This document shows, piece by piece, positions 4,261-49,211 of a stretch of DNA of 64,000 nt. The stretch is from assembly GCA_964016885.1 (NCBI GenBank), contig OZ024742.1, positions 233,678,001 to 233,742,000 of the forward strand. The letters are read 5' to 3'. Under the pieces are notes generated by a model. It was not told the origin of the DNA. It worked only from the letters and a program-made list of their open reading frames with translations, and did no database searches. Source of the stretch: Eledone cirrhosa (Eukaryota). Each line of letters opens with the position of its first letter. The first letter of the stretch is position 1. Position numbers and translations under genes: made by a program.

Positions 4261-4431
4261 TGTCTGCTGCACAATGGAACGAAGACAGCGAAAAGAAGTT
4301 AAATGCAACGAAAACATTAGTATGAAAACAAGACAAGAACATAAAAACGTCTTCAGATGACAGCACTAGATACAGTTTCGCATGATATATGTATAAATCT
4401 GAGGTGAAAAGGCGTAAAACGAAAATCAGCG

Positions 4432-4938
4432 ATGGACAGATGGAGATACCTTGGAATAGATTTATACGTCGCTATATTTCGGATTTCACGCAAAACCATA
4501 CGAAGAGAGGGTCTTGACATCCAATTGACCCACCCCACCCACCCCCAGAACCCTCCCTACGGAGATGCCTCTCCAGGAAACACTACAACGTGCTCCCTCG
4601 GCAACTGCCCGATATGCCACACAAACTGTTGCTTTCACACCTACGTCGTTTATAACATCGAATGTGACAAGTGCAAGGACTTTTACATCGGCAGTACCTT
4701 TCGATCGCTGCACTTACGAACCAAGGAGCACGTCAGCACTAGAGCCTCGTCCTTTCAGAAACACATCACCAAATGCGGACACAAGGACGGAGGACTCACT
4801 GTCACGGCGCTAGCGACAGGGCGCAACTTTGGAACTCTAAGGATCAAGGAAAAACTTTGGATAAAACGACTGAAACCATCAATCAACAACAGATCTGAAA
4901 TGAGTGAAATGTTGTGGCTGGTCTAACCCGAACGACGA

Positions 4939-34688: not shown

Positions 34689-35184
34689 CTGAAATATTCC
34701 TTGGTATGACTTTATTCCAAGAAAATTGTCGCACTTTACACTCTGGCTCAGGAATTGATATTTCAGGGAAAATTTTTTGTGGAGAACGAAGGATAGACTG
34801 TCCTGGGTTAAAAGGCATTGAAGGTGGTGCTGGAGGAGCAGCTGTTGAAATTGTAATCTCAGGTGTGATAGCATTACCCTTGGGTAAGCCCAGTGGTGGT
34901 GGCGGTGGTATTGCTGCTGAACCCATAGCCCCTTTCATTGTTGGTAGAGGTGGTGGTGGTGGTGGTGCTGCTGGTACTGATGGTGTTGCTGGTAACATTG
35001 ATGATGGTAGAGGTGGTGGTGGTGGTACTGATGGTGTTGCTGGTAACATTGATGATGGTAGAGGTGGTGGTGGTGGTGGTACTGCTGGTACTGATGGTGT
35101 TGCTGGTAACATTGATGATGGTAGAGGTGGTGGTGGTGGTGGTACAGCTGGTGAACCCACAACCCCTTTCATTGTAGGCAGAGG

Positions 35185-35215
<31 letters not shown>

Positions 35216-35638
35216 GGTGGTGGTGCTGCTGATTGTGTTACTGGTAACATTGATGAAGGTAATGGTGGTGGTGGTGGTACAGCTGGTGAACCTACAGCCC
35301 CTGTCATTGTAGGCAGAGGTGGGGGTGGGGGTGGCATTGCTGGTCGGTCTTTATTCCCTTTTATCAAAGGAGATTTACTCAGATTTATACTCAGTGTAGA
35401 TATATGCTCAGTTTTATCACTGATTTGATCATCTCTCACCTGAGTTGTGGAGTTTTCACACGGTTCAGTTTGTATAGCTTTTTCTTCTGATGGGGCTGAC
35501 ATTGCAGACATAAATGAGGAAGCATTTGTTACTATGGAAACTGAACTAGAACGGCGACTTGAACAGAAGCTGTTGGAACCAGAGCTCTCTGAAGATATAA
35601 AACGTACTTCTCTTTCCAACATATTCCAAATGATTTCA
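34689..35638 (-). CDS. INF2: INF2-like formin, FH1 polyproline exon and FH2 start
   Basis: cttctag|SEIIWNMLEREV..., about 8 polyproline tracts, then KVRQFSWNKV (FH2 lasso Trp)|gtaaac; 950 nt, phase 2->1. Confidence 0.95.
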
Positions 35639-36960: not shown

Positions 36961-38021
36961 CTTTAGCATTTACATTACTCTATATATACTATTGTATTTT
37001 TGTGGTAAAATTTTTACCTCACATAATTATCTAATATAATTATTTCTACTTTAGGCACAAGGCCAGTAATTCATCAGTGCATTACTGGTACTTTATTTTA
37101 TCGACCCCGTAAGGATGAAAGGCAAAGTCAACCTCGGCGGGATTTGAACTCAGATCGTAAAGGGACATAACTATGCGGGAAAGCATGGCGTCCGACCCTC
37201 TACCAATACTGCCAATCCACCATCGAATATATAAGATTTTGAAATTATTTATTTTGAGGATAATACCTCAACATCAGTATGAATGGCTAGTTACTGCCAG
37301 TTTGAACAGGCAAAGCCAAGAGAATTCTGGCCAGATACGGCTAGTTTAAATGCTAACGGGTTAAGGCCCACCAGATGACAGATTCTAGTAATCTGTCAAA
37401 AACCTTCTCCAGACTAACATAAGCTAGATATAATAGAAAATAGACATTAAATCGTGATGATGATGTGTACAAAAAATTGTGACAATAAATACTAATGTAC
37501 ATAAAACATTCAAACATGAGCACTTAATACATGTAAGCAGAATGTATGTATGTAATGTATGTATGTATGTGGAGGGAAGGTACACTTAGAAACGACCCAA
37601 AGAAATTATGAAAGGTTAAAAAGAGATGTGAAGAAGGGCGAAAAAGTCACATCCATGCTATACACATGCAGAAGCATGTTTGAAACTTTCAAGCAATATG
37701 TAAACTCAAGTGTGAGGTAGCTGCAATCATCTAGTATGTATGTGTGTATATATGTATGCATGCATGCATGTATGTATCTATGTATGGAGAAGGAAAACTC
37801 CAATGTAAAATCTGAGGTTCATGAAGTATTCATTCTTGTCATACTATTTGACACATTGAATAGCAACTTCATGTTCCAAAAAGTGGAGGTAGGGCTGTGC
37901 AAGCTACATCTACTTTAAAAATAATATTTGCACAGATACTTCTTATACACTTTCCTCATTATTTAAGATCATAATGAGGAGTTGGCAGTAACCTAAAAAT
38001 GCATTCATAATTCTAATTGAA

Positions 38022-41000
38022 ATGTCTCACACAAAGTCAGTAAATGGCAGAAAGGGCTTGGGATCTTCTGCTGAACAGTTCAAGTCTGGCAGGCGTCCTA
38101 GGATGCTACAGCCTGGGCTTGGTCATTATCCTGCTACTGTGACAAACACAATCAACCATCCCCAAAAACCTAGGGTTAGTATGAAGTTTTCTTGTTGGAA
38201 TGTACGTACTCTCATAAACAACAATAAATCTGAGAGAGCAGAACATCGCACAGCATTAATTGCAAAAGAAATTGGTGAATATGATCTGGACCTTGTTGTA
38301 TTATCTGGGGACACGTCTACCTGGAGATGGCGAAATTACTGAAAAGCCATCAGGTTACAAATTCTTTTGGAAAGGTTTGTCTGAAGGGCAAAAGAAAGAT
38401 TCTAGTGTTTGTTTTGCAATTAAAAACTCAACTCTAGACTGTATCCAAGAATTTCCAAGCAGTCTATCTGAACACATGATATCTTCTGACTCCAGCTAAA
38501 AATTAATTCCTGACAATTGTGAGTGTTTGCACACCAACAATGTCACATTCTATTAAAAGCATTGAAAAATGTTATCAGGATCTTGGGAACCTGGTGCGAA
38601 AAGTTCCAAGAGAAGAGAAACTAGTCATCATGAGTGACTTTAATGCTAGAATGGGAGTAGATGGTGCAACATGGCCTGTTTTGGGGAAGCATGGCACTGA
38701 AAATGCAATGATTATGGACTATCGCTTCTCACATTTTGTACCAAACACTTCAAGGAAAAAGAGAATTATAAAAACACATGGTCTAAGCGCTGGCACCTTC
38801 TTGACTATATATTATTCAAAAGCAGCTGTGAATGCTGTCACTAGTGGGTGAGTAATGAGAGGTACAGAATGTTGGATGGACCATAGGTTTGTTTGAGGGA
38901 AATTCAAGTTCTCAATCTGGCAAAAAATCAGAAAGGCGGGATCTAAAATACTTAGGAGAACAGACACTGCAAGTTTCAAATCCACTATGTTGTTGAAAAG
39001 TTGTCATGGTGGAGTTATGAGTATTACTCTCAATGAAAATAACCTTTGGGAGAGTTTCAAGTCTCAAGTTTATGAAGTTGCATCAAGCACTTTGGGTTTC
39101 AAATCCAAGAAGCTGGCTGTTTTCTTTGCTGGTAATGACCTGGAAGTGTCTAGACTTCTGCATAACAAACAAGAGATGTGCAAACACATTCTAGGAAAGT
39201 CAAAAAATCCCATCAAAAACAGTAAGTTTAAGGCTATTAAATCAAACATTCAGAACAGTCTTCAGCGCAAATGAAGGAAAATTGGTGGCACCAGAAGCTA
39301 ATGAAGCACATGCAGCTGCAGACTACAAAGGCTCTAAAGCCTTCTTTTTGTATACAAAAGAGGTGTTTGGTCCTAGAGCAACAGCGATATCCCCTGTGAG
39401 ATCAATTAATGGACAACAAATCTTTACGGATGTCATATCCATACAGAAACATTGGGTGTAACACTATTCTAATCTGCTTAACAAGCCATCAAATTTAAAT
39501 ATAGACACAGTTGAGACAATGGACAACCTTCCAGTCATCAACGAGCCTTCAGTAGATGATATCACCACAGCTGTGAAGAAGTTAAATAACAATAGATCTC
39601 CCAGTATCGATGATATCAGTGCAGAAATATTGAAATGTTGTGGACAAAAGATGATTGAAATACTACACTCACTACTTTTGCATTGTTGGAGGAAGTACCA
39701 CAGGACTGGGTCGATGCTATTTTAATATTACTTTTTAAATCTGATCCTAAAGATTTATGCAGTAACTTTCATGGCATATCTTTGTTATTTGTTGTTGGAA
39801 AGGTACTCTTGTGTATTCTTTCAGAGCGTCTTCACAAATTCATTATTCTATGAGCTGTGTCAGAATCACAGTGTGGGTTTTTCCCCTTTCACAGGACAGT
39901 TGACATGATTTTCACTATCCACCAGCTACAAGAAAAATGCAAAGAGCAAAACATGGGGTTATATCACTGCTTTGAAGACCTTAGCAAAACGTTTGCCACT
40001 GTTCACAGGACTACATTGTGGTTGATGTTGAAAAAATTTGACTGTCCTGAAAAGTTTGTGAATATGATTAAAGCTCTCCATAAGGATATGAAGGCTCATA
40101 TTAATTCTGGTGGTATTCTTTCAGTACCCTTCACTGTGGAAAATGGAGTAAGGTAGCGCAACCTTGAAGCAGCAACACTCTTCGCCATCTATTTTATAGC
40201 GATGCTGTCAAATACCTTTGCAACATCAACAGACCAAGTCTTTATACAATATCACTCTTCAGGCAATGTGTTCAATTTGACTTGAATGAGATTCAACTCT
40301 AAAGTCTTCACCTCTTTGATCCATGACCTTCTGTATACAGATGACTGTGACTTAATAAGTTATACTGTTGAGGACTTGCAAAGACTGATCAGTGATTTTG
40401 ACGCTGTTTGTGATATGTTCGGTCTTATAATTAATCTGAAAAAGTCTGCTGTATTGCATCAACCTGCTCCCGGGGAGCAGACAACAACACCTCGAATCCT
40501 CATTAAGGGCACAATGCTAAAGATAGTGACTTCTTTTCAATACCTTGGTAGTAGGATACAAGCTGATGGCAAATTGGATACTGAAATCACATCTCGTATA
40601 CAAAAGGCAGCAAAAGCCTTTGGTGGACTTGAAATTAAAGTCTCGTTACAATGTCACATTAAAATGGAGACTGAGATTGCTGTATATATCTAATTTGTGC
40701 TTTCCATACATAGACGTTGTACACACGGCATATTAAAATGTTGGAGCAGTTTCATCAAAAATGCCTCCAGAATATTCCCAAAATAAGCTGGAACACATTC
40801 ATTCCAGACACTGAGATTCTTGCTAGGACAAAAGTTACATCTACTCTAGCTATGCTTATTAGGAATCAATTAAGATGGACATGTCATATGATTCATATGG
40901 GTGGTGGATGCATCCCCAAGAAAATGTTTTATGGTGAACTGAAGCTGGGCACAAGGAGAAATAGTAAGCCAAGGAGGAGATATAGAGACTCTCTAAAAGT

Positions 41001-41810
41001 GAACTTAAAATGCCTTAGTATATCCTACAAAAATCTTGAGTCATCTGCAGCCAATAGAGTGGCCTGGAGAAATGCCATTTGGAATGGATTTAAAGCATTT
41101 GAAATAAAGAGGTTAAAATATGCAGAACTGGAAAGAAAAGTGTGAAAGACCAACAATAATAATTGTTTCTACTTTTGGCACAAGGCCAGCAATTACCCAG
41201 TGCATTACTGGTACTTTATTTTATCAACCCCGTAAGGATGAAAGGTAAAGTTAACCTCGGCGGGATTTGAACTCAGATCATAAAGGGCCGTAACTCTATG
41301 CTGCAAACAATAATAATTGTTTCTACGTTAGGCACAAGGCCACCAATTACCCAGTGTATTACTGGTACTTTATTTTATCGACCCTGTAAGGATGAAAGGC
41401 AAAGTTAACCTCGGCGGGATTTGAACTCAGACCATAAAGGGCCGTAACTCTTTGCTGCAAAGCATAGCGTCAGACCCTCTACCGATACTGCCAATCCACC
41501 ACTGATGAATCTTATGCATCGTTGGTTTTCAAATGCCCTGTGTGCCTTAACTATTCAAACTTTGTTGCAGCGAATCAGTTCCAATGTCATGTTTGTCAGA
41601 AAATTTGCAAATCAGGTGCTGCATTGATTTAAACATACAATAAACAAACCCAAAGTGGAAACAAGAACGAAATAAGACATCATTGTATTATTTGTGAACA
41701 GGTGTTTCACGGGATTTCAGGACTCAAAAGCCATTTGAGATATCATGCCAGGAAGGAACAGACATGAAGTGCAAGAAGTGGTCAAGCTTTGTGTGGAGCA
41801 GACGATCTTC
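38022..41810 (+). mobile_element. Near full-length degenerate RTE LINE interrupted by two SINEs
   Basis: FSCWNVRTL, SDFNARMG, ESQCGF, LLYTDDC, QLRWTCH, then C2H2-like motifs at 41520-41750; many stops/frameshifts; family-A SINEs (-) at 41153-41501. Confidence 0.92.
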
Positions 41811-42818
41811 ATGTATATATGCATGCATGCATGTGTGTATGTGTGTGTGTATATATATATATTATGTCGGGTCACTCTTGAGTGCTACTGGTAACATGTA
41901 ACCCAGTACAACCTGTCGCATGGTCGGGTCGTCGGCGACTACACCGGCAACCCCAACAAATTTACTTGGTGAGGAGGGTGATTTTGGACACCCTGCAGGA
42001 CAAAAAACAAAACCTGACAAAGGGCAGAACTCATAAGAGGCAACGGTCATCCGAAAGTGTGTAAATATGTATATACACATGTACCGCACGGTTAAACCAC
42101 TGGGAGTGAAGGACCCCTAGCCATTGTCAGGGCATTCTTCTAGGAGAAGGCAACTCAGGAAACTGGGATAAAACCTGCGGCTCAGTAGTTACCGATGATG
42201 TTGATCTTTTCTTCTTTTCGGGTTATAGCTACTGTCGCTCAGAGAGTGGGATTGGCTCAGTGCACAGTCTTTCCTCACTTTAAAAAATATCTTCACGCAC
42301 AGGCATTGCACGATAGAATTAATTAATAATTATTAATAATGGTATATCGTGCAATGGTCATACTCGATAACGAGGGGGCAGCCATCATATATATATATAA
42401 GAAACAGGTGTCGGTGTTAATACATACTTTTAACACTGAAGATCTAATTCACGTCTAGTAAATATAGTAATATATTATTACTCACCAACGGAGTATATGT
42501 ATATATATATATATTTATGGGGGGGGGGGGGCTTGCGTTTGTAAAACATATCAAAAAGTGGGCTGAGAATACTCTTCAGTTATGTCAAGGCACAACAACC
42601 TCTCTAGTGTTGGTGACATGATAAAACGCACCCAATTCAGACAGACAGACACACACATGATTACCTATACATAAGACGTTAAGATCCATACATCATATTA
42701 ACCACCTAGCTGATTAAGTTCTATTTGGTTTATACGGCCGATTTCTGTTTCGAAGGAGGTTTTCATGTCAGTCAAACCTCCTCTCTTCAAGTGAAACTGT
42801 GATATCTCGAAAATTGAT

Positions 42819-44309
42819 TCAAAATCTAAAGAATTTGCATTTATTAGCTGATGTGGGAATGTCAGGTTGTGATTGGTGCGTTGTGAAAGACTGTGATAGG
42901 CTGCACTCAAATTTTTCCTGTAGACGTTCGTTTTCTTCCTCGAGGAACTTTAACCGAACCTTCTGCTTGGACTGGGAACAATTCAGCTCGTAGATGATCT
43001 CCGACTGTTCACCGTTCTTTAAAATAAGTTCTCGGCGTTCTTCGACCAACTTTCTGTAGCTGGCTTCCTTCTCTTCTCGCAGCTCGTGTTCCTGTGTAAC
43101 CATGGACCTAGCGACCAGTACGTCCTGTTCCAAGTGATACAACTGTTCTTTCAGGAGGTTCTTTTCCTGGTTGTACATCTGCGTAGCTCTCAGGAACTTT
43201 GTACAGATTCGAAGCTTGCTATCTTCGTACTTTTCCTGCTGCATCTCCTGCCGTTCGTTAGCAGCAAACAGCGCTATCTTTAAGTCAGTGATCTCCCTCT
43301 GAAGCTGGTGTACGTCACACGTATTGCAACTGCTGGGCTCTTTATTGCTGTGCTGCTGCCACAGAGTATAAATCATTTCCTTCTGCATGTTCTGTATCTC
43401 TTGTTTTAAATCATTCTGACTCTGCAGCAGCCGTCTGCTACGGGCCTTTTCTTTATCCAGTCGTTGTTTGTACAGCTTCAGTTTCTTTTCAGCTTTCGAA
43501 AGGGTGGTTTTCAGTTTATTCAAGTCTTCCAGTGCTATCGCTTTACCATGTTGTTGTGGAATCAAGCTCTGGAATTCATCTTCATACAGATTACATTGAC
43601 AAAGTTTACAAACAGGTAAGCAGGCAATATTGTTGCTGTTATTAATACTATTTCTCATTGAACTGTCGACACTGAGTTGTGTCTGTATAAAAATAGTAGG
43701 CAGTTGTGCCACTCCGTCGTTTTGTTGTAATCGAAGAACTTCTTTTTGTCTGGCTTCCAGTTCCTCCCCCAATTCAAAATTCTCCTGCGAAATCTTCTCT
43801 AGATGCTCGTGCTGCAGCTGATTGGCTTTTCGGCAGACCATGGTTTGGCAGCTACGAATCATTCTCTCTTTGGTATGGCTTGGTTCTTTACTAAGAGTCT
43901 GATTGTATGAGACTACATCGAGTTTCACTTCACTACATTGTAGTGGCTGGTCTTTGTTTGTTACTTTTAAACATTTCATCTTCTCCATACCATCTTGTTC
44001 ATCATCACCACCATCACTATAATCATCTTCTTCGGCATCTTTTTCTTTTATTCTTCCTGCTGTTTGTTCCTCTTCTCCTTCCTTGTCACGATCGCCATCA
44101 CCATCTTCATCTTTATCTACTCCACTTTTGCCAGAGAATGTTCCGAAACAAATGTTCTGGTGGATATCCGGTTCTGTAATTGCCAGAGGAATATCCTGAG
44201 GGTTGGAGTTATATCTATTGCTAACGTCCTCAGCGGAGTCATCTTCTTCCAGAAATACCGGCGGCGACGGTGGTGGTGTTGATGATGATGCAGATGGCTG
44301 TGACTGCAT
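42819..44309 (-). CDS. Intronless 496-aa coiled-coil ORF, CCDC30-like, nested in formin intron (retrogene or processed pseudogene)
   Basis: Uninterrupted 1491-nt ORF; acidic low-complexity N-part; C-part QQEKYEDSKLR..KFLRA..LEQDV..RKLVEERRELI..RLKFLEEENERLQ resembles the CCDC30 C-terminus (from memory). Confidence 0.7.
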   Translation of the reverse strand: MQSQPSASSSTPPPSPPVFLEEDDSAEDVSNRYNSNPQDIPLAITEPDIHQNICFGTFSGKSGVDKDEDGDGDRDKEGEEEQTAGRIKEKDAEEDDYSDGGDDEQDGMEKMKCLKVTNKDQPLQCSEVKLDVVSYNQTLSKEPSHTKERMIRSCQTMVCRKANQLQHEHLEKISQENFELGEELEARQKEVLRLQQNDGVAQLPTIFIQTQLSVDSSMRNSINNSNNIACLPVCKLCQCNLYEDEFQSLIPQQHGKAIALEDLNKLKTTLSKAEKKLKLYKQRLDKEKARSRRLLQSQNDLKQEIQNMQKEMIYTLWQQHSNKEPSSCNTCDVHQLQREITDLKIALFAANERQEMQQEKYEDSKLRICTKFLRATQMYNQEKNLLKEQLYHLEQDVLVARSMVTQEHELREEKEASYRKLVEERRELILKNGEQSEIIYELNCSQSKQKVRLKFLEEENERLQEKFECSLSQSFTTHQSQPDIPTSANKCKFFRF

Positions 44310-44625
44310 CTTGTACCAACATTGATACCTCTTCCAGTTCCTGCAAGACAGATGCCAACTTCTCGAAAATGTCTTCTATCGACACCGTCACCGTCCGTAG
44401 ACACTTAGAAATCTCTTGCCTAGCAGAGTTCACGTATAGCAGTCCGTTTTCTGCCTTCCTCGCGTCGATCCGAACTTTGTCCAGCTTCTCTTCCGTGTTC
44501 GTTTGTTCTGCGACGCTCGATTGCAGTCTACTGCATGCGCGCGTCACTCAACTCTGTCTCCATTTCCGCCAGCCTTGTAGAAAAGTTTCTTTTGATTCCA
44601 ATAAGTTTAGGTCTCCTCCTGGAAT
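44239..44625 (-). pseudogene. Disabled coiled-coil sequence directly 5' of the nested ORF
   Basis: Helical peptides TRLAEMETELSDARMQ* and RLQSSVAEQTNTEEKLDKV...IFEKLASVLQELEEV occur in different frames, with stops and frameshifts. Confidence 0.55.
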
Positions 44626-44960
44626 TTTATTCAGAATAATTCTGTTTCCCTTCATGTTCCTCGCAAGCATATTTACCAAGAGCATCTTCTCTACCTCAGG
44701 ACAATCTATAAAAAAGCTAAGGATGAAAAGGTTCAGATGGAAAATGTTCATCGGCGTGAAATGGAAGCAGTAGACTAATATGTAAGGCATATACAACAAT
44801 TGTCTGAAAGTGGTGCGATTACCTTAAGGACCCTAGAATTTGAAAATAAAGAACTCAGTGATAGAATCACAGATAGTTTACGACCAAAACTCAGTTCAAA
44901 AGGATTTGAGAAAAATACTGGAAGACATCGGATTCCATTCAATAGTGGATCGAAAATACT
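44626..44960 (+). pseudogene. Inverted N-terminal fragment of the CCDC30-like copy
   Basis: + frame from 44641: ...YQEHLLYLRTIYKKAKDEKVQMENVHRREMEAVD*YVRHIQQLSES...TLEFENKELSDRI, frameshift, VQKDLRKILEDIG; resembles CCDC30 N-terminal EMxEVExYVxHIRxLxEER..EFExENEQL. Confidence 0.6.
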
Positions 44961-45273
44961 TTTATATATCTATGTATGCAAAATATATGTATATATGTAT
45001 TTATGTATGTATTTATGTAAAATGCATGTATTTATGCATTTATGCAAAAGGCATGTATATGTATTTAGGTATATAAAATGCATATAAAATGTATGCATAC
45101 ATGCATATGTATACGCATGTATATATATATATGTGTAAAATGTATGTATATATGTAAAAAACATGTATAAAACGTATACTCTTTTACTCTTTTACCTGTT
45201 CAAGCCATCCCGCTAAGGCCATGTGGGGCACCGCCCTTGTATGTAAAATAAATGTATGTATGTAAAATCATAC

Positions 45274-45353
45274 CTGTGTGTCATACTAGCATTTATTTGA
45301 AACAGACTCTGTAGAATGGAAACAAAAGCAGCAGATATTGGTGAGTCTCGAAC
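45274..45353 (-). CDS. INF2: INF2-like formin, dimerisation-domain exon
   Basis: attttag|VRDSPISAAFVSILQSLFQINASMTH(ag)|gtatga; resembles INF2 VSCSPVSAQLLSVLQGLL; phase 0->2. Confidence 0.85.
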
Positions 45354-48302: not shown

Positions 48303-48414
48303 AATATCCGAAACAATGACAGACTGCCGTTAAACCTTTTATTGCCTGCCCATTTGTTCGATAGAGTATATTAGACTGAAAATCAAGCAATAAAATTTAA
48401 AATATTTCAATTAC

Positions 48415-48596
48415 CCGGTTGTAAATAGCTGTGAACAGTTCTTGTGGGTTATTAACATTGACATTGCCATCTTTCATTTCCTCCAGAGCTTCCTGATCAG
48501 CTGACATCTCATCTTTGAAAACATCCCATTGTATTTGAAAGTCAGGATTGTCAATATTTTCACAGACTGCCGTTATTGTCTCTTCTATATTCAATG
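48415..48596 (-). CDS. INF2: INF2-like formin, DID/dimerisation exon
   Basis: ALNIEETITAVCENIDNPDFQIQWDVFKDEMSADQEALEE...NNPQELFTAIYNR|gtaatt; phase 1->0; acceptor (tattgaag) is weak. Confidence 0.85.
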
Positions 48597-49211
48597 CTTC
48601 AATAGATATTAAGTAATCTTGTTTACATCATCTTGAAAGAGGAATCTTCATACAATAAAAAAAATATTGTAACTCTGCACAAAGAAATATTCTCGATTAT
48701 AATTTTAACAATATTAATAATCTATGAGACCATAAATTATTAGAAATTACAAATCATTGATTAAATGCTTTGTAAAAGTTTGTTATATTCCAGCTACTAA
48801 GTTCTGAGTTCAGTTGGGTTTCATTACTCAAAGAATGGTACCATAAATGTCAGTAAATTACTATCTTTGATTTAATAGTCCAATGTTTATTTTAAGAAAA
48901 TTTAAAAACTTAGCAAATCTTTGAGGAAAGTGCTATGACCCGGTATTTAATGTTCTGAGTCTGAGAAATATTTGTAATGGCTGTTTTTAACAGTTTATGA
49001 GTACTTTAAGTATTTTAACCATCATTTACCTATGTAAGCTTACAGCACAAAATTAGATTTAGAACTACACAAGTAGGATCAATAGAAAGTTAAAATAATC
49101 ACTTTAATAGTCCACATCAGTCTCTTCCAATAGGCATTAGCCTCTCTTGATATTTTTTCATATATTTTAAATTTTAAAAAGAAGAACCACGATTTAAATG
49201 TAAATGTAATT

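Follow-up and report, generated by a model that had tools for sequence, protein, structure and literature searches.

How did a coiled-coil coding block come to lie inside an intron of a formin gene with its two parts joined 5' end to 5' end, and is any of it still in use? The question is raised by a window of 64,000 bases from Eledone cirrhosa (contig C3 of the 3.0-Gb assembly G000), most of which is spanned on the minus strand by an INF2-like formin gene. Between two formin exons lies a CCDC30-like block, 2.4 kb overall. An earlier note, made from the letters of the window alone, had taken this block for a retrocopy of a CCDC30-type mRNA that was inverted at its 5' end by twin priming on insertion and whose C-terminal open reading frame (ORF) has been maintained by selection. 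The feature proved real: it is a retrocopy that contains an inversion. The evidence speaks against twin priming at insertion; most likely a long-lived retrogene was rearranged late, by deletion-inversion-deletion.

A DNA search of the genome with the block gave six matches, in order, along 17 kb of a second contig, C24. The parent gene was rebuilt from 150 kb of C24 with the Octopus sinensis orthologue as guide; it occupied C24:19.66-19.75 Mb and contained at least 19 introns, and its exons D-L spliced into an open frame whose end resembled that of the Octopus protein. Introns were absent from the copy at 11/11 of the parent junctions that it spans (A|B|C in the plus-strand piece and c10|D|E|F|G|H|I|J|K|L in the minus-strand body), and the block is thus a processed copy of this multi-exon CCDC30-like (DUF4686-family) gene. 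The proposal of a retrocopy of a CCDC30-type mRNA was therefore borne out, with an intron-containing parent in hand and relatives that carry DUF4686. Both pieces matched the same C24 gene and one Octopus protein, as the earlier note had supposed, and an origin from two different genes was ruled out on the same ground.

The host gene was mapped exon by exon with the Argonauta INF2-like protein P0007, which placed the block in a 9.6-kb phase-2 intron between exons 45351-45274 and ~35638-34690, so that the reported nesting between formin exons held. A contig from run X4 spliced 48413-48597 onto 45274-45351; this confirmed the formin exons and identified X4 as spliced RNA. The parts of the locus are as follows.

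45274..45351, minus strand, upstream exon of the host INF2-like formin (FH3 region), with a phase-2 donor, 315 bases from the inverted piece
44677..44959, plus strand, inverted N-terminal piece, orthologue residues ~41-134, from parent exons A, B and C without introns, with TAA at 44776 and a 2-base loss at ~44870
44669..44676, no strand, inversion junction, at which the joined parent positions agree at 6/7 bases in register (microhomology)
44310..44675, minus strand, dead 5' part of the body, from parent exons c10 and D, with 7 indels, of which 6 cluster in ~85 bases at 44624-44543
42819..44309, minus strand, 496-codon ORF, in the parent frame for 466 codons (44309-42912; an acidic linker and a DUF4686-like coiled coil), the last 30 codons out of frame
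42688..42911, minus strand, parent-frame C-terminal tail, severed by a 1-base insertion at ~42911, with TAA at ~42700, three codons ahead of the parent stop
42552..42687, minus strand, copy of the parent 3' untranslated region (~135 bases), including a high-copy repeat fragment common to the parent
34690..35638, minus strand, downstream exon of the host formin (FH1), from protein mapping

The inverted piece is 283 bases long, and the first ~40 codons of the parent are absent from the copy. Between the outer end of that piece and the start of the body, the copy lacks ~2470 bases of the parent mRNA, which correspond to ~590 residues in the Octopus orthologue. The missing middle was not found nearby or elsewhere: a search of 164 kb surrounding the window gave nothing, and exon c7 was found in the genome on C24 only. 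Agreement at 6/7 junction bases has a chance of 0.007 (0.7% of 20,000 random sense/antisense pairs). The head-to-head join of 5' ends from one parent stood as the earlier note had it, but its position moved from 44626 to ~44675, the bases 44626-44675 belonging to the minus-strand body and crossing the parent c10|D splice junction. A contig of 2415 bases covered 42598-44979, without any difference in run X1 and with a single one in run X2 (one sample, maybe the assembled individual); as single read-derived contigs cross the whole structure, an assembly artefact was ruled out.

The lesions listed earlier, TAA 44776, the 2-base loss at ~44870 and a 5-base loss at ~44315, were all recovered, as was the 496-codon ORF at 44309-42819 on the minus strand. 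The further claim that these 1491 bp carry no lesion was right for stops but not for frame; the insertion at ~42911 shifts the last 30 codons off the parent frame and costs ~70 C-terminal residues of the parent. An X4 piece, 42803-42953, matched the insertion region exactly. Neither a poly(A) tail nor a target-site duplication (TSD) was found at the copy, in agreement with the first statement; the copy is of considerable age (dS ~0.5-0.8), and TA microsatellite lies on either side of it. Candidate TSDs were TA-repeat matches only and were dismissed.

When was the 5' end inverted? The ratio of nonsynonymous to synonymous rates (dN/dS) was estimated against the parent by pairwise GY94 fits under three codon-frequency models. 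Indel and stop codons were dropped from all sets, and poorly aligned low-complexity stretches from the 'core' sets. A piece dead since insertion should give a pairwise dN/dS of at least 0.5, given equal synonymous rates on both branches. For the inverted piece (93 codons, dS 0.70-0.86) values of 0.23, 0.26 and 0.22 were obtained, with likelihood-ratio p values of 0.020, 0.030 and 0.007 against 0.5 and p<0.006 against 0.6. The tail (73 codons) gave 0.30-0.41, the dead body (113 codons) 0.41-0.56, all non-ORF codons together 0.31-0.38, and the ORF 0.44-0.68 depending on alignment (228-444 codons, dS 0.44-0.66), with a rough value of ~0.65 on its own branch. As N-terminal, middle and tail segments all lie well under 1, a long coding phase is indicated. 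In the inverted piece, second positions differed at 9/94 codons and third positions at 32/94, and there was 1 stop in 94 codons despite the pairwise dS of 0.7-0.86. Among residues common to the parent and O. sinensis, the copy was changed at 15/72 in the inverted piece, 9/38 in the tail, 84/284 in the ORF and 27/70 in the dead body. The 283 non-ORF codons held 2 clear stops, or 4 counting two at ambiguous indels, where neutrality at 0.2-0.3 substitutions/site predicts ~8-11; 2-4 stops fit a distance (d) of ~0.04-0.08. It is likely that the inverted N-terminal piece was coding for most of the history of the copy, and translation over most of the copy's life would make the inversion late.

Twin priming, and 5'-inverted mRNA retrocopies, were reportedly treated for L1 by Ostertag and Kazazian in 2001 and by Kojima and Okada in 2009, and the locus has much of the expected appearance. 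The inverted 5' piece lies head-to-head with a sense body, the ORF is open, and the junction shows microhomology. The last feature is not specific to a mechanism; twin priming also leaves microhomology (Kojima 2010, PMC2912911), and the junction alone thus cannot decide how it was made. Where twin priming is followed further the locus departs from it. A small gap is expected at a twin-primed junction. Here the outer end of the inverted piece and the start of the body are ~2470 bases apart in the mRNA, against 13 bases in one twin-priming pair given in bioRxiv 2024.12.14.628481. There is no TSD, and the inverted piece, which should have been neutral from birth, shows the low pairwise dN/dS, the excess of third-position differences and the single stop described above. 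The model of the earlier note, in which the C24 mRNA was twin-primed at insertion with a 5' piece dead from the outset and a selected C-terminal ORF, is for these reasons improbable, and its dating of the inversion to insertion was not upheld. A search for L1 ORF1 (PF02994) was uninformative, with no match in the genome and none in the control genomes either.

Short inverted stretches flanked by two deletions, with microhomology, form a recognised class of DNA-level variant in PMC6286558, which includes a human deletion-inversion-deletion (delINVdel) allele of similar scale, with 5.7 kb deleted, 298 bp inverted and 9.9 kb deleted, and names microhomology-mediated break-induced replication and fork stalling and template switching (MMBIR/FoSTeS) as mechanism of such junctions. 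We consider it probable that a long-working retrogene underwent such a late event. The intron-free copy of the C24 gene, whose ancestral state we infer to have been colinear, would have been a functional protein-coding retrogene through most of its existence; a template switch of the replication type (MMBIR/FoSTeS) would then have made both new junctions, roughly within the last 0.04-0.08 substitutions/site. The observed part of this account consists of the retro origin, the nesting and the structure: an inverted stretch of 283 bases, the loss of ~2.5 kb and of the first ~40 codons, and the microhomology where the pieces meet. The same history together with an ORF still in use is a tentative proposal, to which we give somewhat less than even chances. 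In it the C-terminal 466 codons may be kept open by weak selection, the remnant may be transcribed in the same direction as the formin, likely under a promoter of its own, and ATG 44309 would start a shortened coiled-coil protein.

The case for present use comes from the reading frame. The ORF had 0 stops in 466 codons, where 4.1-6.2 are expected at d 0.05-0.08, and the probability of no stop was 0.01 at d 0.05 and 0.004 at d 0.08. All of its 14 indels relative to the parent were in frame, an adjacent +8/+10 pair being summed. Openness by chance is unlikely. The claim that selection has kept the ORF open thus drew moderate support from the want of stops and frameshifts and none from amino-acid rates. 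If the late rearrangement is granted, weak selection on the ORF today has a chance little better than even. The 'new ATG' proposed as the start at 44309 has no counterpart at the aligned codon of the parent, which reads GCG, or of the Octopus orthologue; its use as a start is putative.

Several observations weigh against the history of late rearrangement and continued use. The dN/dS test is pairwise, assumes equal synonymous rates and includes no outgroup DNA; the dead body and the tail singly failed to reject 0.5, and the pooled non-ORF codons rejected it in 1/3 models. The junction microhomology, as already noted, is also expected from twin priming (PMC2912911). The ORF was no more constrained than the dead pieces, the comparison of ORF core with non-ORF codons giving p 0.053 in the opposite direction. 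The branch to its C-terminal part measured 0.45 against 0.15 for the parent, a threefold difference. It is already short of the ~70 C-terminal residues, and six ATGs off its frame lie between 44685 and 44322, one of which opens a 27-codon frame overlapping the start. In X4, the contigs of which carry neither strand nor expression level, the copy was represented by only three 151-base pieces at a depth of ~2, like a piece from the next intron.

Some of these points bear directly on a reading in which the history is the same but the whole copy has been dead since the rearrangement and the 466-codon stretch is open by luck. It agrees with the absence of extra constraint on the ORF (the ratio of retro-branch to parent-plus-Octopus divergence was ~1.0, against ~0.9 for the inverted piece), with the loss of the 5' end and of any promoter, with the frameshifted C-terminus and with the failure to see a transcript in X4, and the probability of no stop rises to 0.09 if d is as low as 0.03. 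Luck fits less well with the spacing of the lesions, the longest-gap test on the ORF giving p 0.02 with only 6 lesions and 1e-4 with 12, and with the count of 0 frameshifts in 1398 bases against 8 indels of non-multiple-of-three length in the other ~850, two of these at the ORF ends. We regard a dead copy as unlikely but worth keeping in view. A young twin-primed copy of some other source, a paralogue or earlier retrogene that had diverged under selection and has since been lost or left unassembled, would account at one stroke for low dN/dS everywhere, few lesions, the head-to-head shape and the microhomology. However, whole-block DNA, ORF protein and missing-middle-exon protein searches of G000, with the best candidates scored, found no second source gene, only C24; the ~2.5-kb junction gap would again be needed, against the 13 bases of the pair reported in bioRxiv 2024.12.14.628481; and the open ORF would be left unexplained. 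Such an origin is rather improbable. That the two halves are separate genes sharing a promoter at the CpG-rich junction is barely credible, as selection on a fragment of ~90 residues would be required.

As to expression, the remnant could use its own promoter, the stretch 44300-44700 being rich in CpG (observed/expected 0.87-1.14, against 0.04-0.55 in 1-kb bins at 28-42 kb), or it could be spliced from the formin. Two acceptor-like sites matter here.

44340..44362, minus strand, weak candidate splice acceptor, CAG at 44340, predicted join to donor 45274 open into the ORF
44705..44728, minus strand, best acceptor-like site of the intron, rank 1/654 of the AG sites, in the inverted piece, use of which ends the formin frame within three codons

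The remnant might accordingly be read as an alternative last formin exon, joined from 45274 to 44340 to give a chimera of INF2 N-terminus and CCDC30 coiled coil. It lies on the strand of the host with the donor 934 bases upstream; the join would be in frame across the whole ORF, with 533 codons counted from the formin donor exon; the 5-base loss at ~44315 brings acceptor 44340 into frame with the parent coil; and such capture would account for the upstream decay and require no promoter. Set against this, the phase match has a 1-in-3 prior, the join would end the FH3 match ~20 residues early, and the acceptor is weak (score 0.6, rank 55/654, although 7/30 true acceptors scored lower), with the much stronger out-of-frame site upstream at 44705. 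No 45274>44340 junction was seen; the donor is covered by one spliced X4 formin contig, which leaves the stretch at 45274, and such contigs drop rare forms. Exon capture thus has a slim chance. No RNA record was listed over the copy, and neither polymorphism in the ORF nor bridging of the junction was visible in the restriction-site-associated DNA sequencing (RAD-seq) runs X5-X7, in which coverage is too thin.

The name 'CCDC30-like' is fair as a statement of similarity. The ORF matched DUF4686 (PF15742) at E 9e-7, but with 28.3-28.8 bits it stayed below the curated cut-off of 31.3, which was passed by 6/8 relatives found with phmmer, including Lottia, Lymnaea, Patella, Owenia and Saccoglossus proteins. 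Octopus orthologues gave no DUF4686 match; in the atlas, CCDC30-like clusters ranked first for the C-terminus of the Octopus orthologue, which is a lead only. Of a protein of ~1470 residues, the ORF keeps about one third. The homologue search found none at near lengths and the Octopus orthologue at longer ones, and no second retrocopy-like protein from another octopod appeared among 8 representative hits, a weak negative given clustering at 50%. Segments of ~120 and ~28 residues of the Octopus orthologues (cf. C24:19731360-19735706) were missing from parent and copy alike, and trees with the copy arising before or after the split from Octopus were not separated (approximately unbiased test, p-AU 0.445).

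With regard to the parent gene itself, exon C (C24:19707958-19709211) contained a long repeat expansion, rich in Thr and Ala, that Octopus lacks. The frame of this exon shifted within an ATC-repeat stretch near 19708830, for which a mistake in the assembly, an overlooked intron and a genuine lesion in the parent are all conceivable causes. The O. bimaculoides orthologue was given as three proteins (P0008, P0016 and P0017) in one release, and another release has a single protein of 1180 residues, probably through an annotation or assembly split.

The locus resembles L1 twin-primed, 5'-inverted retrocopies (PMC2912911) in its head-to-head join, junction microhomology and intron loss; it differs in the signal of purifying selection in the inverted piece, the ~2.5-kb gap, the lack of TSD and poly(A), and the mollusc host. 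With delINVdel variants (PMC6286558; reportedly also the subject of PMC5338099) it shares a short inversion flanked by two deletions, and microhomology, the difference being that here the change is apparently fixed in a retrogene whereas there it is a disease allele. Mcts2 in H13, reported as an intron-nested retrogene (PMC13309782), and amphioxus SYCP1, reported as a retrogene beside the ParaHox genes (PMC5803294), are comparable in that a retrocopy lies within another gene or next to one; the present copy too has a ParaHox gene, Xlox/Pdx, at a distance of ~41 kb. In the present case the parent is retained and the copy broken.

Caution is due here: a retrocopy whose 5' end is inverted head-to-head need not have been twin-primed, and how selection has acted on the inverted piece can serve as a simple test. 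The copy appears to be a cephalopod retrogene with a long coding life, seen in decay or truncation and apparently undescribed; no published account was found among the octopus and cephalopod literature on retrogenes, retrocopies and processed pseudogenes, a scope outside which lie subscription papers and supplements, whose retrogene lists could mention it. In Xenopus, Ccdc30 forms rings around basal bodies, and both centriole amplification and apical actin depend on it (bioRxiv 2025.05.20.655211); by analogy a remnant protein would act at basal bodies or centrioles. Expression of the ORF or of a formin chimera would make this a naturally truncated form of a basal-body protein that has received little study. 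On the small chance that exon capture is true, a lineage-specific chimera would have arisen from a broken retrogene, with a possible direct link between formin and basal body.

Other features were observed around the copy. The same formin intron held a decayed long interspersed element (LINE) with reverse-transcriptase fragments at 37992-41145 (plus strand, antisense to the host), followed at 41152-41461 by a short interspersed element (SINE)-like repeat in two tandem 154-base copies, which occurred several times near the parent too. An element at 42089-42399, 150 bases beyond the 3' end of the copy, was 81-95% alike to C24:19686737-19687001 in the parent intron A-B and is probably a dispersed repeat. 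Along the formin gene body, observed/expected CpG mostly ranged over 0.03-0.6 (28-41 kb and 48-64 kb); the neighbourhood of the copy (41-48 kb) had 0.55-1.04, and the stretch at 20-28 kb had 0.67-1.14. On the plus strand, a GIY-YIG endonuclease ORF at 4408-4926 is presumably a fragment of a Penelope-type element. A homeobox exon at 1188-1697 on the same strand had PDX1 as its top solved-structure match (E 1.8e-31; runner-up 8e-24) and belongs to an Xlox/Pdx ParaHox gene, convergent with the INF2-like formin.

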